In this document: positions 8,283 through 26,327 of the stretch, piece after piece
Layout of the letters: every line of letters begins with the position of its first letter
How positions within the stretch are numbered: position 1 is the first letter of the stretch
From: Clostridiales bacterium
GTDB taxonomy: Bacteria > Bacillota > Clostridia > Oscillospirales > Oscillospiraceae
Assembly (NCBI GenBank): GCA_004556965.1
Contig: SFFE01000011.1
Span: 6,394-38,393, forward strand
Length of the DNA: 32,000 nucleotides
Direction of reading: 5' to 3'
Translations under genes and position numbers: made by a program
Notes under the pieces: generated by a model
The model's input: only the letters and a program-made list of their open reading frames with translations
Told to the model about the DNA's origin: nothing
The model's database searches: none

Positions 8283-8310
8283 TTGACAAGCAGCGAAAAA
8301 ACGGTATAAT
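8283..8310 (+). promoter_or_regulatory. Promoter for the metK leader
   Basis: TTGACA (8283-8288), 16 nt spacer, TATAAT (8305-8310). Confidence 0.7.
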
Positions 8311-8329: not shown

Positions 8330-8473
8330 GCCTTATCAAGAGTGGCGGAGGGACCGGCCCTGTGAAGCCCGGCAACCTGCATTTGCAAGGTGCCAAATCC
8401 GGCGGTGTAAATCGAAAGATGAGGGAATCACGACTTTCCATGCGCTCCGCCGGGACGGCGGGGCGCATTTTTT
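8330..8473 (+). promoter_or_regulatory. SAM-I (S-box) riboswitch with intrinsic terminator
   Basis: CTTATCAAGAGTGGCGGAGGGACCGGCCCTGTGAAGCCCGGCAACC...AAGGTGCCAAATCC...AAAGATGAGGG matches the S-box core. An 11-bp terminator stem at 8442-8466 is followed by T6. Confidence 0.93.
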
Positions 8474-8535: not shown

Positions 8536-9732
8536 ATGGCACATCATCTGTTTACTTCGGAATCGGTCACGGAGGGACATCCGGACAAGATCTGCGACCA
8601 GATCTCCGACGCGGTGCTGGACGCGATTCTGGAAAAAGACCCGAACGGCCGCGTTGCCTGCGAATGCACGGTGACGACCGGCATCGTGAACGTCATGGGC
8701 GAGATCACGACCGACTGCTATGTGGACATCCCGAAAACCGTGCGGCAGGTCGTGCGCGAGATCGGCTATGACCGCGCGAAATACGGCTTTGACTGCGAGA
8801 CCTGCGCCGTCGTGACGAACATCGACGAGCAGAGCGGCGACATCGCGCTCGGCGTGGATCAGTCGCTGGAGAGCAAGGAGAGCGGCGACGCCGCGCTCGA
8901 CAACGGCGCGGGCGACCAGGGTATGATGTTCGGCTACGCCTGCGACGAGACCCCGGAGCTGATGCCGCTGCCGGTCTCCCTCGCGCACAAGATGGCCAAG
9001 CGGCTGGCCGAGGTGCGCAAGACGCAGCTCGTGGCCTATCTCCGTCCCGACGGCAAGACGCAGGTGACGGTGGAATACGACGAGCAGAACAAGCCCGTGC
9101 GCGTGCACACGGTGGTGCTCTCCACGCAGCATGCGCCGGAGCTGCCCATGGAGCAGCTTCGCCGCGAGATGATCGAGCTGGTCATCCGCCCCGTCATTCC
9201 TGCCGGGCTGCTGGATGAGAACACGCGCTATCTCATCAACCCCACCGGACGCTTCGTCGTGGGCGGCCCGTGCGCGGACTCCGGCCTGACCGGCAGAAAA
9301 ATCATCGTCGATACCTACGGCGGCAGCGCCCCGCACGGCGGCGGCGCGTTCTCCGGCAAGGACCCGACGAAGGTGGACCGCAGCGCGGCCTATGCCGCCC
9401 GCTACGTGGCGAAGAACATTGTCGCGGCAGGGCTTGCGTCCCGCTGCCTCGTGCAGCTTGCCTACGCCATCGGCGTGGCGGAGCCGGTGTCCGTCATGGT
9501 GGACACCGAGGGCACCGGCACGGTCGCCGACGAGACGCTCGCCGCGGCGGTGCAGCAGGTGTTCGATCTGCGCCCGACGGCGATCATCCGCGATCTCGAC
9601 CTGCGCCGCCCGATCTACCGCAAGCTCGCCGCCTACGGACACATGGGGCGCGAAGACCTCGGCGTCCGCTGGGAGGACACTGACCGCGTGGACGCGCTGA
9701 AAGCGGCCGTAAAAGGCGTCACCGTGTGCTGA
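8536..9732 (+). CDS. metK: S-adenosylmethionine synthetase
   Basis: [29 protein letters not shown]..., [28 protein letters not shown]. The track start at 8362 would run through the riboswitch. GAGGA lies 10 nt before ATG 8536. Confidence 0.97.
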
Positions 9733-9772
9733 AACAGACTGCTGCACAGCCAAAAACTCCCGCTTTGCCGAG

Positions 9773-9801
9773 TTGACAAAATGGGAGTGTGTGCGTATAA
9801 T
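9773..9801 (+). promoter_or_regulatory. Perfect consensus sigma-A promoter with no downstream gene on this strand
   Basis: TTGACA (9773-9778), 17 nt spacer, TATAAT (9796-9801). Confidence 0.75.
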
Positions 9802-9807
9802 AAAAAC

Positions 9808-9905
9808 AGAAAAGGCGCTGCCGATAAGCGGTTTGGCCTAGTTACAGTTCAATAAGTATCAACCTAAGAAACCGTCACTTTGCCGAGTGGCGGTTTCTGC
9901 ATTTT
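9808..9905 (+). ncRNA. Candidate sRNA of about 98 nt, antisense to the 3' end of the 25-codon ORF
   Basis: Bounded by the consensus promoter and the hairpin at 9868-9897 plus TGCATTTT. It contains no ATG or SD. Confidence 0.5.
9868..9905. terminator. Hairpin shared by the convergent small transcripts (and probably metK)
   Basis: 11-bp stem GAAACCGTCAC/GTGGCGGTTTC (one G-U pair) with an 8-nt loop. T-rich sequence follows on both strands. Confidence 0.65.
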
Positions 9906-9952
9906 ACGATGATCGTAACCGTAAAGGCTCCGATATGTAACGTAATCCGCAT
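9875..9952 (-). CDS. 25-aa hydrophobic/cationic micro-ORF (MRITLHIGAFTVTIIVKCRNRHSAK), a candidate type I toxin
   Basis: ATG at 9952-9950, TGA at 9877-9875. SD GGGAGGGAGGTGA has a 7 nt spacer (GGAGG to ATG). It has its own promoter. It is below the track's size cutoff. Confidence 0.45.
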   Translation of the reverse strand: MRITLHIGAFTVTIIVKCRNRHSAK

Positions 9953-10029
9953 AGCCTCACCTCCCTCCCGGGAGATTGGCCGAACCGCCTACCGAATCTG
10001 GCAGCGCCTGCCCCGCATGGGGCATATTG

Positions 10030-10058
10030 ATTCTACACGTTACGCCATGATTTGTAAA
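10030..10058 (-). promoter_or_regulatory. Promoter for the micro-ORF transcript
   Basis: Minus strand reads TTTACA (10058-10053), 17 nt spacer, TG-n-TAGAAT (10035-10030). Confidence 0.7.
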
Positions 10059-10097
10059 TTACGGCCATTTCGGCAGAAGCTCTTGCCGGCAACCGAA

Positions 10098-10131
10098 CAA
10101 CTGCGCGCCCTCTTTCGGGGGCGCGCAGTTG
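10098..10131 (-). terminator. Terminator hairpin of the met operon
   Basis: 13-bp stem CAACTGCGCGCCC/GGGCGCGCAGTTG, 17 nt after the stop at 10148. The U-tract is weak. Confidence 0.5.
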
Positions 10132-10147
10132 CTGCTGTCTATGGAGA

Positions 10148-11908
10148 TTACAGCGCTTCGATGATCTTTTTGATGAGCTCCACGCGGCGGAAGGGGGTCA
10201 TGATGTACAGCCCGTCGGTATACGGCGTGATCTCCTGCGCGATGCGCGTCGAGATCGTGACGGCGAGCGCCTCGGCCTCGTCGCGGTCCTTGCCCGCATA
10301 GAGATCAATGATCTCTTCGCAGACGCGCATGCCGGAAATTTCGTTGTTCAAAAAGCATGCGTTGCGGTGGCTCACGACGGGGAAGATGCCGCCGAGCAGC
10401 TTGCCCTGCAGCGTTTCGCGGGCGCGCTTGAGATTTTCCAGCGCCTCGGCGGACAGCACCGGCTGCGTGAGGAAGCCGACAACGCCGTTTTCCTCCTTCT
10501 CCTGCGCGCGGCGCAGCTCAATGTCGAAGTTTTTGGCGTTGAGATCCAGCGCGCCGAACACACGGAACGGCGACGTAAGAACGGTGCTGTTCAGACTCGT
10601 GACATACCGCGCGAGCTTGCGGGAGTTGAAGTTGAACACGCTCTTGACCTCGTCGCGCTCCTCGGTGGGTATCGGGTCGCCTGTGACGAGCAGCACGTTG
10701 TGCACGCCTTCCATCGACAGTCCCAGCAGCAGCGCCTTCGTGGCGTTCAGGTTGCGGTCGCGGCAGGTCATGTGCGGCAGCGGCTCCATGCCCAGCTCGC
10801 GCTTGACTTTGCAGGCGAGCAGGCTGCTGTCGGCGCGGGGACGGCCGATCGGACAGTCGGCAAGGGTCACGGCGTCCGCGCCGCAGTCGCGCAGCGTCTT
10901 CACCGCGTCGAGGAAGTAACCGACATTGTCGTCCACCGGCGGGTCGAACTCCACGGCGATGACGCGCTTGCCGGCACTGAGCTTGTCCCAGAACGGGTTT
11001 GGCTTCGGCGCTTCCGGCTGCTGCTGTGCGGCGCGCTTGCGCACGTGCGCCTGTGCGGGAGAAAACCGCGCGAGCGTGGCGGTCATCTGCGCGATGTGCT
11101 CCGGCGTAGTGCCGCAGCAGCCGCCCACGATGGCGGCGCCGGTCTCCGCGATCTGGAGCATCTTGCCCGCGAAATAGTCCGGCTTGCCGTGATAGACGGT
11201 CTGGTGGCCGACCACGGAGGGATACCCGGCGTTCGGCATGACCGAGACGATGACGCCCTGTATGTCCAGCGTGCGCAGCAGCTCCAGCAGGTGATGCGGG
11301 CCGGAGTAGCAGTTGAAGCCGACGGCGTCCACCTCCGGGATGGCGGCGGTGCTCTGGAACAGCTCCTGCCCCAGACGCCCCTCGCGCGTGGCTCCGTCCG
11401 AGCCGACGGCGTAGGAGACGATCAAAAATGCCTCCGGGCAGCGCTCCTTCAGATAGCACGCCAGTTCCGCAATGCCCTCGTCCGACGGCAGTGTTTCCGC
11501 GAGAAAGTGCGTCACGCCCTGCTTCAGAAACAGATCGACCTCGCGGCGATAGGTCTCGGCGGGCGGCATCGGCAGACCCTGCGGCGCGGGGCCGAGATCG
11601 GCGAACACATACGCGCCGTAAGGCCCGGCGGCCTCAGACGCCAGGCGGCACCCGGCGGCGATGATCGCTTCGCCCAGCTCCGGACGCCCCTGCGCCAGAT
11701 CGACCCCGGCGGAGAAGGTGTTCGTCTTGATTGCCTGACAGCCCGCGGCGAGATACGCGCGGTGAATGGCGAGAATTTCGTCCGGATGCTCCAGATTCGC
11801 GTTTTCGCAGCGCATCTGCGCCCGGCCGGGCAGGGAGGCATAATACGTGCCCATCGCGCCGTCAAAGGTCAACGGCTTTCCCAATGCTAAATACGTTCTG
11901 ATATCCAT
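10148..11908 (-). CDS. Bifunctional homocysteine S-methyltransferase / 5,10-methylenetetrahydrofolate reductase (YitJ-like)
   Basis: 586 aa. N-terminal Hcy-binding domain (FDGAMGT...GGCCGTTPEHI) and C-terminal MTHFR domain (VEFDPP...PHMTCRDRN...LLVTGD). Its ATG overlaps the metH stop (TAATG). Confidence 0.9.
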   Translation of the reverse strand: MDIRTYLALGKPLTFDGAMGTYYASLPGRAQMRCENANLEHPDEILAIHRAYLAAGCQAIKTNTFSAGVDLAQGRPELGEAIIAAGCRLASEAAGPYGAYVFADLGPAPQGLPMPPAETYRREVDLFLKQGVTHFLAETLPSDEGIAELACYLKERCPEAFLIVSYAVGSDGATREGRLGQELFQSTAAIPEVDAVGFNCYSGPHHLLELLRTLDIQGVIVSVMPNAGYPSVVGHQTVYHGKPDYFAGKMLQIAETGAAIVGGCCGTTPEHIAQMTATLARFSPAQAHVRKRAAQQQPEAPKPNPFWDKLSAGKRVIAVEFDPPVDDNVGYFLDAVKTLRDCGADAVTLADCPIGRPRADSSLLACKVKRELGMEPLPHMTCRDRNLNATKALLLGLSMEGVHNVLLVTGDPIPTEERDEVKSVFNFNSRKLARYVTSLNSTVLTSPFRVFGALDLNAKNFDIELRRAQEKEENGVVGFLTQPVLSAEALENLKRARETLQGKLLGGIFPVVSHRNACFLNNEISGMRVCEEIIDLYAGKDRDEAEALAVTISTRIAQEITPYTDGLYIMTPFRRVELIKKIIEAL

Positions 11909-20140: not shown

Positions 20141-20411
20141 GTTCCCGGCTTTTCGCATAGGGATGCAGTAAATCCTGCGGTGTGCGTGGAGCATAGTGGT
20201 TGCTCGGAGCCTATTTAAACCCACATCTCTCATAAGGGATGCCGGAACTCCCGCTGCGGATTGCAGGCCTCCCGGAGCGGCTTTGCGCCGCTTTGGACGT
20301 TGGAAGCAGCGAAACAGCGGGGAGGCGACCCACCTGCATTCTGTGCAGGTTGTAATTGGGCTCACACGGCATCGCGGGACGGCCGGCAGCGGATATCGCT
20401 GCCGGCTTTTT
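20141..20411 (+). ncRNA. Unassigned structured RNA region (a long 3' UTR or an independent ncRNA) ending in a strong terminator
   Basis: No credible ORF. A long closing helix can form between 20174-20191 and 20361-20378. Internal helices include 20248-20256/20315-20324, 20274-20293 and 20332-20350. Confidence 0.35.
20382..20411 (+). terminator. Intrinsic terminator
   Basis: GCCGGCAGCG-GATA-TCGCTGCCGGC followed by TTTTT. Confidence 0.8.
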
Positions 20412-26000: not shown

Positions 26001-26085
26001 TGGTGGGGGAAGATGGATTCGAACCATCGAAGGCATTGCCAGCAGATTTACAGTCTGTCCCCTTTGGCCACTCGGGAATTCCCCC
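26001..26085 (-). tRNA. tRNA-Tyr (anticodon GTA), class II with a long variable arm and encoded CCA
   Basis: GGGGGAATTCCCGAGTGGCCAAAGGGGACAGACTGTAAATCTGCTGGCAATGCCTTCGATGGTTCGAATCCATCTTCCCCCACCA. It is close to canonical bacterial tRNA-Tyr. Confidence 0.95.
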
Positions 26086-26251: not shown

Positions 26252-26327
26252 TGGAGCTGGTAGACGGACTCGAACCCCCGACCTGCTGATTACAAATCAG
26301 CTGCTCTACCAACTGAGCTATACCAGC
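26252..26327 (-). tRNA. tRNA-Thr (anticodon TGT), encoded CCA
   Basis: GCTGGTATAGCTCAGTTGGTAGAGCAGCTGATTTGTAATCAGCAGGTCGGGGGTTCGAGTCCGTCTACCAGCTCCA. My fold gives one G-G mismatch in the T-stem. Confidence 0.88.

Follow-up and report, generated by a model that had tools for sequence, protein, structure and literature searches.

The intergenic gap 3' of metK and before an MTHFR gene, in a 32,000-nt stretch of Clostridiales bacterium DNA (the window), raises the question of whether a micro-ORF and an antisense RNA converging on it constitute a toxin-antitoxin (TA) system of type I, as the original prediction proposed. The analyses described below indicate that the gap carries an undescribed, autonomous two-transcript module, which on its sequence features probably behaves like a type I TA system of the 3'-overlap kind exemplified by bsrG/SR4.

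Promoters, transcripts and RNA structures

The window copy of the module is chromosomal, with metK on one side, the metH/MTHFR genes on the other and a SAM riboswitch adjoining. The following features were assigned to it.

9773..9801, + strand: sRNA promoter TTGACA-17-TATAAT, 12/12 consensus match
9808..9906, + strand: predicted antisense sRNA (putative antitoxin), about 98 nt, ends predicted from sequence, supported by folding
9796..10023, - strand: predicted peptide mRNA, about 225 nt, ends placed from the -10 box and the closing helix
9813..9838, - strand: 3' arm of the closing helix, from inverted repeat, fold and covariation; read on the + strand, this stretch is the sRNA 5' stem-loop
9867..9898, both strands: hairpin spanning the stop codon and the 7 codons before it, 13 pairs, sRNA terminator on the + strand
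9875..9952, - strand: 25-aa ORF MRITLHIGAFTVTIIVKCRNRHSAK, TGA stop inside the hairpin, predicted beta-hairpin core (about residues 1-17) and cationic tail
9969-9957, - strand: Shine-Dalgarno sequence (SD) GGGAGGGAGGUGA, half-buried in the anti-SD/SD hairpin
9959..9976, - strand: anti-SD/SD hairpin AUCUCCC-GGGA-GGGAGGU with GNRA loop, from sequence and fold
9978..10009, - strand: 5' arm of the closing helix, from inverted repeats I6 (10 nt, 100%) and I1 (17 nt, 82%) and covariation
10010..10023, - strand: 5'-terminal hairpin GCCCC-AUGC-GGGGC of the mRNA, from sequence and fold
10030..10058, - strand: promoter TTTACA-17-TAGAAT of the peptide (putative toxin) mRNA, 10/12 consensus match

Further copies of the module were collected by a hairpin-pattern scan, which yielded at least 119 loci in species-representative genomes and 108 IMG/VR contigs; among the matches listed there are 237 copies, 129 from genomes (nearly all Oscillospiraceae) and 108 from IMG/VR phage contigs.

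A scan of 4 kb returned 5 promoter-like sites against 0.7 expected, and both promoters were recovered where they had been predicted, with 12/12 matches on the + strand and 10/12 on the - strand. The TGn extended -10 element originally read on the - strand is absent, the actual sequence in the promoter scan being GTG-TAGAAT. The sRNA promoter is perfect (12/12) in 97 of the 129 genome copies and 101 of the 108 phage-contig copies (198/237 in total), while the toxin-side promoter has a mean score of 9.2 of 12 among 168 unique complete copies and is outscored by the sRNA promoter in 144 of these 168.

The 5' end of the predicted peptide mRNA was placed from the -10 box and its 3' end from the closing helix together with the U/C-rich tract CCUUUUCUGUUUUUAUU. 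Folding of 229 nt of the - strand RNA of the window copy gave a dG of -101.4 kcal/mol (z = -7.2). The 5'-terminal hairpin was found at 10023-10010 as proposed, and comparable hairpins (e.g. GCCCC-GAAA-GGGGC) are present in many, not all, members of the family (alignment A1); such a hairpin was counted in 83 of 100, a figure that we do not use as evidence, as the folded segment may take in some of the closing arm.

A long inverted repeat (9813-9838 versus 9978-10009), overlooked in the original prediction, lets the 5' and 3' ends of the mRNA pair in a covarying closing helix of about 25 bp. Analysis of the family alignment revealed 42 double-sided changes in this helix against 10.6 in shuffles, with 0 of 500 shuffles reaching 42, and 96.7% of the helix cells were paired compared with 39-53% when the partner columns were slid. 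Duplexes of cognate 5' and 3' arms were more stable than those of non-cognate arms (-21.9 versus -14.8 kcal/mol, p = 3e-16), and the helix is canonical in 95% on the mRNA strand against 81% on the other strand. Since it forms only on the mRNA strand, the mRNA extends past the stop-codon hairpin. The same inverted repeat makes the whole sRNA (about 98 nt) the most likely extent of the RNA-RNA overlap, which supersedes the 30-45 nt given before. A long + strand RNA carrying the closing helix was ruled out by 87 G.U cells that would be A.C mismatches on the + strand. The predicted 3' end of the mRNA consists of the long-range helix and then the U/C-rich tract, and is not a classical terminator.

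The hairpin that masks the SD has the family consensus CCCC-GAAA-GGGG(GUGA). Folding bore out the claim that it occludes the SD, the core of which had an unpaired probability of only 0.01 in the window copy and a mean of 0.06 in 50 family mRNAs. Bound sRNA left the computed unpaired probability of the SD unchanged (0.06 versus 0.04); there is thus no computed route for control of translation by the sRNA, and neutralisation would proceed through decay of the mRNA. The computations likewise gave no route by which the predicted mRNA ever turns translatable.

The predicted sRNA folds with a dG of -33.4 kcal/mol (z = -3.5) into a 5' stem-loop and a terminator hairpin joined by an unstructured A/U-rich spacer, and its sequence contains no AUG, in agreement with the original prediction. 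Over its full length it complements the 3' third of the mRNA, where it covers the final 7 codons with the stop, the spacer and the closing helix's 3' arm. The stop-codon hairpin was located at 9867-9898, where it had been predicted, and comprises 13 pairs. On the + strand a U.G wobble completes its pairing and GCAUUUUAC follows; on the mRNA strand it is weaker, carrying a C.A mismatch whose A is that of the TGA stop. This T/G configuration is found in 129 family copies. The hairpin is canonical in 99.2% on the sRNA strand against 91.1% on the mRNA strand, its top pair covaries (UA 42, CG 8), variant hairpins show compensatory changes, and sequence inspection found no U-tract after it on the mRNA strand. 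The proposal of a shared bidirectional terminator of the fst/RNAII kind has to be abandoned, as the hairpin suits the sRNA strand and the mRNA must read through to the covarying 3' arm; on this comparative evidence the stop-codon hairpin is the terminator of the sRNA and is not shared by the mRNA. Orphan copies that consist of the sRNA only and have their own perfect terminator also occur (e.g. L006 4596-4730).

Coding signal and predicted peptide

A structured non-coding RNA, or a 3' element of metK or the methionine regulon in which the ORF is incidental, would be in keeping with the very stable structure (z = -7.2), with the site between metK and metH/MTHFR beside a SAM riboswitch, and with the hairpin being the only terminator-like element after metK in the window, where a secondary role as metK terminator is possible. 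Such an explanation is contradicted by selection on the ORF, which lies at 9952-9875(-) and reads MRITLHIGAFTVTIIVKCRNRHSAK, as predicted. Codon-position entropies in the ORF core are 0.23/0.17/1.12, the third position having about 5x the value of positions 1 and 2. The pN/pS ratio is 0.12 in the ORF frame (pS 0.53, i.e. near-saturated synonymous divergence) and 3.3 and 2.5 in the shifted frames, so that when conservation was weighed against synonymous drift the ORF proved to be under purifying selection at the protein level. The SD, start and stop are conserved in the family, SD and ORF being kept in 105 of the 129 genome copies and in 108/108 phage-contig copies. As judged from this substitution pattern the ORF is truly protein-coding, and a non-coding RNA as the sole explanation is refuted by the coding signal. 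The module was moreover found in phages and at over 100 sites of unrelated context, was absent 3' of metK in 40 relatives and has no Rfam match; we give next to no weight to a non-coding or metK-associated element. A leader peptide or attenuator was also rejected, given that no gene lies downstream on the ORF strand, that the neighbours vary and that no U-tract follows the hairpin there.

Peptides of the family are 25-32 aa long, apart from natural variants of 21 aa (L011, L049) whose reading frame ends ahead of the hairpin, and in the 25-aa class the residues T4, H6, T11, T13 and K17 are invariant and define a conserved polar face. The AF2 model of the peptide is a beta-hairpin (core pLDDT about 95), the hydrophobic moment of the family peptides is 0.71 at 180 degrees versus 0.30-0.38 at 100 degrees, and a 19-residue Kyte-Doolittle window of at least 1.6 was found in 0/104 family peptides. 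The peptide is therefore predicted to be an amphipathic two-stranded beta-hairpin followed by a disordered cationic tail. With respect to the hydrophobic core and cationic tail described originally, the tail is retained as a prediction, while the helix-like or transmembrane core gives way to the beta-hairpin of the AF2 model.

The last 9 residues of the family peptides have a mean net charge of +4.0. It is chiefly the RNA hairpin that constrains the C-terminal 8 residues, with a single base pair coupling Ser..Lys and Pro..Arg, so the cationic tail may be partly a by-product. Characterised membrane type I toxins are all alpha-helical (PMC8309996). The peptide shares the charged, usually cationic C-terminal region of those type I toxins that associate with membranes and lacks their hydrophobic alpha-helical transmembrane domain.

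Copies of the module in genomes and phages

Conservation among the copies falls to zero just outside both convergent -35 boxes. The copies occupy more than 100 unrelated sites as well as phages, no neighbour gene recurred at over 3 of the 108 genome loci, and multiple copies within one genome as well as tandem arrays were seen. Cultured carriers include Vescimonas fastidiosa MM35, Flavonifractor plautii, Lawsonibacter hominis NSJ-51, Evtepia gabavorous KLE1738 and Oscillibacter valericigenes. On the phage side the neighbours include integrase (28 loci), endolysin, tape measure, tail and repressor genes, and the module often sits at moron positions of temperate phages. Judged by comparison of the copies, the module is real and autonomous.

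The many copies at unrelated intergenic sites, the inverted repeats inside the module and its provision of the sole terminator after metK in the window could also be taken for a repeated or mobile intergenic element, either MITE-like or a portable promoter/terminator cassette, which is kept by spread and whose ORF and RNAs are functionless. Against this stand the lack of terminal inverted repeats and target duplications, with conservation stopping at the -35 boxes, the strong purifying selection on the ORF protein at near-saturated synonymous divergence, the strand-specific covariation of the helices and the intactness of 108/108 phage-contig copies; a functionless element of this kind is very improbable. 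A transposon or MITE as such was rejected, as nothing is conserved beyond the -35 boxes. At the metK locus itself, none of the 40 closest metK relatives (63-89% aa identity) carries the module; these also have no MTHFR neighbour, and the boundary of the insertion could therefore not be defined.

Searches with Rfam 15 over the whole window gave no gathering-score match in the region, and an E-value search confined to 9650-10200 produced only chance-level matches (E of at least 3.8). No family match to the peptide was obtained with Pfam and NCBIfam at E up to 10, including the models of known toxin families (Fst/Ldr, TxpA/BsrG, Hok, Ibs and others). A protein-database query made by concatenation of three family peptides returned 181 relatives, over-extended ORF calls that are all unnamed or hypothetical and without Pfam domain. 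Neither DNA nor peptide matched in the INPHARED phage genomes, and the sole carrier in PLSDB was the Vescimonas fastidiosa chromid. PGAP annotation shows no feature at the Vescimonas copies, in line with the expectation that the ORF would be missed by ordinary annotation, to which the module is invisible because its ORFs are of 25-32 aa. A full-text literature search with six family peptide strings gave no match, and no type I TA system from Oscillospiraceae or gut phages was found in the reviews and texts searched. Neither Pfam, NCBIfam and Rfam nor RefSeq annotation or the literature searched thus describes the module.

A candidate type I toxin-antitoxin system

The coding ORF of 25 aa is within the size of small type I toxin ORFs (<60 aa), and at the sequence level the antisense gene has its own promoter and terminator. 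Toxin mRNAs in T1TAdb are characterised by an SD/anti-SD stem-loop, a 5' stem-loop and a 5'-3' long-distance interaction (PMC8594479), all three of which are present in the module, as shown by the fold, the SD masking and the covarying closing helix. The bsrG/SR4-type architecture is found in the layout and in the presence of the family in phages, the window copy being chromosomal, and the phage carriage of copies matches the known prophage-borne type I TA systems (PMC6563280, PMC7699646, PMC3531473). An intact ORF was accompanied by an sRNA promoter of at least 11/12 in 202 copies and by a promoter below 9/12 in 1/207, and 12 copies had an sRNA promoter of at least 11/12 without the ORF. This asymmetry fits a TA system and could partly be a product of the compact layout, since the 3' region of the mRNA contains the sRNA promoter.

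The selection acting on the ORF as a coding sequence, the sRNA promoter at consensus in nearly all copies, the covarying helices of the mRNA, the pattern of multiple and orphan copies and the prophage carriage are the grounds on which we consider the 3'-overlap type I reading probable; the label 'toxin-antitoxin' is what we infer from them. The combination of micro-ORF, convergent cis-antisense sRNA, masked SD and TA-like layout that the original prediction put forward is strongly supported by the comparative evidence, and the core of its interpretation stands without the bidirectional terminator, the helix-like peptide and the TGn element.

According to the mechanism that we propose, the moderate - strand promoter (10058-10030) would direct an mRNA of about 225 nt whose ends are joined by the helix of about 25 bp. 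Closed ends and an SD buried in a GNRA-capped hairpin would make this mRNA compact, probably long-lived and poorly translated. The + strand promoter (9773-9801), of consensus strength, would give the sRNA of about 98 nt terminated at the stop-codon hairpin. Pairing of both RNAs, probably starting in the unstructured spacer or in loops, would extend into a long duplex that forces the closing helix apart and undergoes RNase III cleavage, and the mRNA would be destroyed as long as the sRNA is made. If the supply of sRNA stops, e.g. upon loss of the module or the prophage, the more stable mRNA may be translated into a growth-inhibitory peptide, which may act as an oligomeric beta-structure in the membrane or by binding a polyanionic partner.

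The closest parallels are bsrG/SR4, txpA/RatA and yonT/SR6 from prophages and prophage-like elements of Bacillus subtilis, in which a small ORF likewise faces an antisense RNA of some 100 nt that converges on it and overlaps the 3' end of the toxin mRNA; SR6, for instance, is a 100-nt RNA with a 3' overlap with yonT (PMC5848175). They resemble the module also in the partly sequestered SD, in being prophage-borne and in the antitoxin promoter being stronger than that of the toxin. SR4 acts on both mRNA decay and translation (PMC3834814), and the RNA duplexes are RNase III substrates (PMC3531473). On the contrary, no sequence similarity to this group was found (no Pfam, NCBIfam or Rfam match), the peptide of 25-32 aa is a predicted beta-hairpin rather than a transmembrane helix, the mRNA has the additional closure of a covarying 5'-3' helix with its 3' arm in the overlap, the antitoxin terminator encloses the stop codon, and the sRNA has no computed effect on SD masking.

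In hok/Sok of Enterobacteria and aapA1/IsoA1 of Helicobacter pylori the antisense RNA targets the 5' or translation-initiation region of the 3'-processed, activated mRNA. These systems are similar to the module in that a 5'-3' interaction and SD sequestration keep the full-length toxin mRNA inert, features that T1TAdb counts among the key determinants (PMC8594479). Here, however, the antisense RNA lies over the mRNA 3' end together with the 3' arm of the long-distance helix, a local hairpin and not the distant 3' end masks the SD, and the host phylum and the peptides are different.

The two RNAs of the par locus (fst/RNA II, Fst/Ldr family) of Enterococcus faecalis pAD1 have a bidirectional terminator in common and anneal by way of 5' direct repeats that span the start region. 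That architecture was not found here, given the C.A mismatch, the lack of a U-tract on the mRNA strand and the need for the 3' arm: the hairpin is tuned to the sRNA strand only and the mRNA continues beyond it, the sRNA is in its 5' part similar, not complementary, to the 5' arm of the mRNA, and the peptide has no Fst Pfam match. In par as in the module, transcription is convergent, both RNAs share a terminator region, the toxin mRNA bears a 5' stem-loop and the small peptide has a charged C-terminus (in part from PMC7472228).

The type I TA systems of Clostridioides difficile that lie in prophages or next to CRISPR arrays (CD0977.1/RCd11 and others) share with the module the class Clostridia and the location in prophages; they were shown to stabilise mobile elements (PMC7699646, PMC5961336, PMC6563280). 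Their toxins of 34-59 aa have a predicted transmembrane domain (PMC6563280), and there is no sequence relation to the module.

The same arrangement could alternatively serve a small protein that is not a toxin, i.e. a phage moron or accessory micro-protein without addiction or killing, whose dose is set by the cis-antisense RNA and which may, for example, bind nucleic acid or use beta-strand addition to modulate a protein of host or phage. Multiple copies per genome and tandem arrays, as they occur in ibs/sib, ldr and zor, speak against this, as does the occurrence of the ORF without antisense promoter in only 1/207 while antisense-only orphans persist. The beta-hairpin with a conserved polar face and without transmembrane helix, unlike characterised toxins (PMC8309996), and the frequent moron positions in temperate phages are in its favour, but the triple repression by masked SD, closed mRNA and stronger antisense promoter is typical of harmful products (PMC8594479). 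We consider a non-toxin function unlikely.

Returning to the type I TA reading, we tentatively put forward as one possible extension of it that the peptide founds a new class of type I toxin, composed of a 17-19-residue beta-hairpin and a cationic tail and acting as a pore or away from the membrane, and that at the same time the frequent chromosomal sRNA-only copies confer anti-addiction immunity against phage-borne copies. The hairpin proposed for this class would have a Thr/His/Lys face and an Ile/Leu/Val/Phe face, the pore would be a small beta-barrel-like assembly, and the immunity concerns the intact copies on temperate phages of Oscillospiraceae.

Few members of the gut and rumen microbiota are as abundant, or as hard to manipulate genetically, as Oscillospiraceae, across which the module is widespread, with at least 119 loci in genomes that represent species and 108 phage contigs. 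If it is a TA system, it would represent a new family whose toxin departs from the 'hydrophobic alpha-helix' rule, and a compact case in which one hairpin is at once sRNA terminator, stop-codon context and coding sequence. It would then also bear on the maintenance of prophages in the gut, and may provide a counter-selection marker in Oscillospiraceae, a use to which the type I toxins of C. difficile have already been put (PMC7699646).

A predicted convergent gene pair in the gap downstream of metK

Analysis of the gap 3' of metK indicated that it contains a gene for a predicted peptide mRNA (~225 nt) and, converging on it, one for a predicted antisense sRNA (~98 nt).

Features of the module and its flanks (window positions)
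8330-8425, upstream of metK: SAM riboswitch (Rfam scan, 84.7 bits)
9732, plus strand: metK stop, at the 5' flank of the gap
9733-10147: gap between metK and the MTHFR gene, holding the module
9773-9801, plus strand: sRNA promoter TTGACA-17-TATAAT (4-kb promoter scan)
9813-9838 and 9978-10009: long inverted repeat, the arms of the closing helix (repeat search)
9867-9898: stop hairpin, 13 pairs (inverted-repeat search and fold)
9952-9875, minus strand: 25-aa ORF (ORF reading)
Minus strand: SD GGGAGGGAGGUGA, half-buried in the hairpin AUCUCCC-GGGA-GGGAGGU (sequence and fold)
10023-10010, minus strand: mRNA 5' hairpin (sequence)
10058-10030, minus strand: mRNA promoter TTTACA-17-TAGAAT (4-kb promoter scan)
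10148-11908, minus strand: homocysteine-methyltransferase/MTHFR gene, convergent with metK

Both promoters, the 25-aa ORF, the stop hairpin, the 5' hairpin and the half-buried SD of the original prediction were all found at the locus; the TGn extended -10 proposed for the minus strand was absent in the promoter scan, and the inverted repeat 9813-9838/9978-10009 had been overlooked. The 4-kb scan returned 5 promoter-like sites where 0.7 were expected. Minus-strand RNA 10024-9796 adopts a closed predicted fold in which the 5' and 3' ends are paired, followed by CCUUUUCUGUUUUUAUU (dG -101.4 kcal/mol, z = -7.2 against shuffles).

The 11-mer CTTTGCCGAGT (repeat D1) has two exact occurrences, one at 9763-9773, directly 5' of the sRNA -35 box and sharing its first base, and one at 9878-9888, covering the stop-hairpin loop and running into the beginning of that hairpin's 3' arm; the repeat may be left over from an earlier tandem module copy. 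A perfect 13-bp GC-rich hairpin at 10098-10131, just 3' of the MTHFR gene stop, is probably the terminator of that gene, shielding the peptide-mRNA promoter from read-through. The Rfam scan also placed a 6S RNA gene at 20169-20384 (plus strand, 54.9 bits) and two tRNA genes at 26004-26085 and 26255-26327 (both minus strand).

Distribution and autonomy of the family

Species-representative genomes scanned with a pattern built from the hairpin alone gave at least 119 loci, those listed being nearly all from gut and rumen Oscillospiraceae or other Clostridia, among them the cultured Lawsonibacter hominis, Pseudoflavonifractor capillosus, Evtepia gabavorous, Agathobaculum ammoniilyticum, Yanshouia hominis and Oscillibacter valericigenes. 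These loci yielded 129 copies with the strand-asymmetric family hairpin, several genomes carrying multiple copies or tandem arrays, and 108 IMG/VR viral contigs also matched. A hairpin-independent scan for the peptide core gave 93 matches, 80 of them with the exact hairpin; a few of the other 13 are explained by contig ends and the rest carry variant hairpins, in most of which compensatory changes preserve the pairing.

A handful of listed matches in other phyla were rejected as chance palindromes. The matches in unrelated phyla (L034 and L070, from Anoxybacillus, L017, L024, L026, L097 and L102) were taken as chance or unrelated terminators and excluded from family counts; match lengths were read for L017, L024, L026, L034 and L070, whose spacing is unlike that of the family, and the arms of non-family matches are mostly perfectly palindromic. 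A few copies (L014, L047, L053, L064, L117, L119) come from MAGs whose labels are Bacteroidales, Bacteroidaceae, Roseburia or Lachnospiraceae, and could reflect binning contamination or real spread beyond the Oscillospiraceae.

In a blastn search of plasmid records the only match was the 861-kb replicon of Vescimonas fastidiosa MM35, in five places. At 308.8-309.6 kb of NZ_AP023416.1 (locus L006, 3990-4746), downstream of nadE, lie two tandem full modules, both promoters of which are perfect consensus and whose peptide is MRVTLHIGPFTVTIIVKRRNRH(S/P)A(K/R), and an inverted sRNA-only copy (L006 4596-4730) with a perfect promoter and the textbook terminator GGUUUUCUUUUUUAUU. RefSeq annotates nothing at these copies.

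Conservation drops to zero directly outside both -35 boxes. No terminal repeats were found at the module ends, even the most frequent neighbouring gene family occurs at no more than 3 of 108 listed genome loci, and the module was not found in the 40 closest metK relatives. Neither a MITE nor a metK element was retained as sole explanation. On viral contigs the module adjoins an integrase in 28 loci, ~280 nt away, as well as endolysin, tape-measure, tail and repressor genes; these sites are moron positions of temperate phages.

The ORF and its predicted peptide

SD and intact ORF are present in 105/129 listed genome copies and 108/108 viral-contig copies, the ORF being 21-32 aa, mostly 25 or 27. 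The other genome copies are contig-end truncations, sRNA-only orphans and a few decayed genes (start loss in L073, frameshifts in L107 and L111). Within the core of the 25-aa class, mean entropy was 0.23, 0.17 and 1.12 at codon positions 1, 2 and 3, several residues being invariant with near-random third positions. Pairwise pN/pS was 0.12 at pS 0.53 in the ORF frame compared with 3.3 and 2.5 for these bases in the other two. Judged from sequence, the family ORF is a gene; a pure ncRNA was rejected as sole explanation. Among the 237 genome and viral copies, an intact ORF accompanied an sRNA promoter of at least 11/12 in 202 cases and one below 9/12 in 1, while 12 had a strong sRNA promoter without a functional ORF.

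The family core reads (M)[RP]-I-T-L-(T-F)-H-I-[G/L]-x-[FYW]-T-V-T-I-x-V-K, in which hydrophobic residues strictly alternate with Thr/His/Lys/Arg on both sides of a variable two-residue turn, followed by the tail [SRC]-R-N-R-H-[SP]-[AG]-[KR]. At 180 degrees the hydrophobic moment reaches 0.71, against 0.30-0.38 at 100 degrees, and AlphaFold2 (84-sequence alignment) modelled two strands, residues ~1-7 and 10-17, with pLDDT ~95 in the core and low confidence in the tail. The peptide, with its hydrophobic core, had been likened to small membrane-active toxin peptides; none of 104 family peptides reaches 1.6 in a 19-residue Kyte-Doolittle window, and the models point to a beta-hairpin and not to the hydrophobic alpha-helical transmembrane peptide of all characterised membrane type I toxins (PMC8309996). 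The cationic tail was borne out, with a charge of ~+4 over the last nine residues. Its sequence is largely dictated by the RNA: the top pair of the stop hairpin is UA in 42 sequences, CG in 8 and mismatched in 0, and as it joins the first bases of the residues in Ser..Lys and Pro..Arg endings, it couples them. In a small subfamily from Oscillospiraceae genome contigs (L011, L049) a TGA just 5' of the hairpin leaves 21 aa and no tail (e.g. MTLTVTFHVRGYTVTIQVRVK), so the beta-hairpin core can exist without it.

Pfam, NCBIfam and Rfam gave no match for module or peptide. A collection of 5.8 billion proteins gave 181 relatives, all of them over-extended ORF calls that are unnamed or hypothetical, mostly of 45-140 aa ending in the true peptide; in database entries P0003 and P0091 gene callers merged two adjacent family peptides into single 71-87-aa 'proteins'. 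No paper in the searchable literature contains the peptide, and a clostridial type I TA review lists none from the Oscillospiraceae clade.

RNA folds, strand assignment and interpretation

The sRNA promoter scores 12/12 in 97/129 listed genome copies and 101/108 viral-contig copies; among 168 unique complete copies it exceeds the mRNA promoter in 144 (means 11.8 and 9.2). When 50 unique full-length mRNAs were aligned, the inner closing helix, SD hairpin and stop hairpin were 96.7% paired, compared with 93.3% in shuffles (matched by 0/500) and 39-53% when partner columns were slid; double-sided changes numbered 42 against 10.6 expected (reached by 0/500). Since the outer closing helix aligned poorly it was tested alignment-free, and cognate 5'/3' arm duplexes were more stable than non-cognate ones (-21.9 vs -14.8 kcal/mol, p = 3e-16). 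The masked SD was upheld, its core having a mean unpaired probability of 0.06 (<0.2 in 45/50 copies).

The strand of each helix was assigned from wobble pairs. On the mRNA strand 95% of closing-helix and SD-hairpin pairs are canonical, against 77-81% on the opposite one; for the stop hairpin the sRNA strand gives 99% and the mRNA strand 91%, and on the latter the A of its single C.A mismatch is that of the TGA stop. The stop hairpin is therefore the sRNA terminator, and the mRNA must read through it to the 3' arm. A hairpin shared by both RNAs had been proposed: it does overlie the stop codon, but terminates the sRNA only. The overlap, put at no less than 30-45 nt, consequently grows to the entire predicted sRNA (~98 nt), antisense to the mRNA 3' third.

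SD/anti-SD stem-loop, 5' stem-loop and 5'-3' long-distance interaction, the T1TAdb criteria for type I toxin mRNAs (PMC8594479), are all present in the predicted folds. The closest layouts are the 3'-overlap systems bsrG/SR4, txpA/RatA and yonT/SR6 of Bacillus prophages (PMC3834814, PMC5848175, PMC3531473); of the likeness drawn to fst/RNAII, txpA/RatA and bsrG/SR4, that to the latter two holds, without the bidirectional terminator. Prophage carriage is common to the module and C. difficile type I systems (PMC7699646, PMC6563280). On this anatomy, layout and carriage, the module is probably best explained as a type I toxin-antitoxin system; the main rival, a non-toxic micro-protein dosed by antisense RNA, seems rather unlikely. 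The toxin-antitoxin sRNA would act mainly via duplex-dependent decay; blocking the sRNA-covered part left the computed SD unpaired probability unchanged. Architecturally the module belongs to a known kind; what is new is the family, the predicted beta-hairpin peptide and the placing of the stop codon within the terminator.

Upstream of metK are a perfect consensus promoter (8283-8310) and the riboswitch terminator (8440-8468); the longest metK ORF calls overlap the riboswitch, so the true start lies further downstream (near MNTMAHH...). From the metK stop to the sRNA promoter (9733-9772) no terminator-like structure was found, so that metK read-through would stop at the sRNA terminator 9867-9898, which, there being no other terminator 3' of metK, probably also ends metK transcription here. 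The read-through RNA would include sequence antisense to the peptide mRNA, and at the window locus SAM-riboswitch-controlled transcription could thereby be coupled to antitoxin dose.
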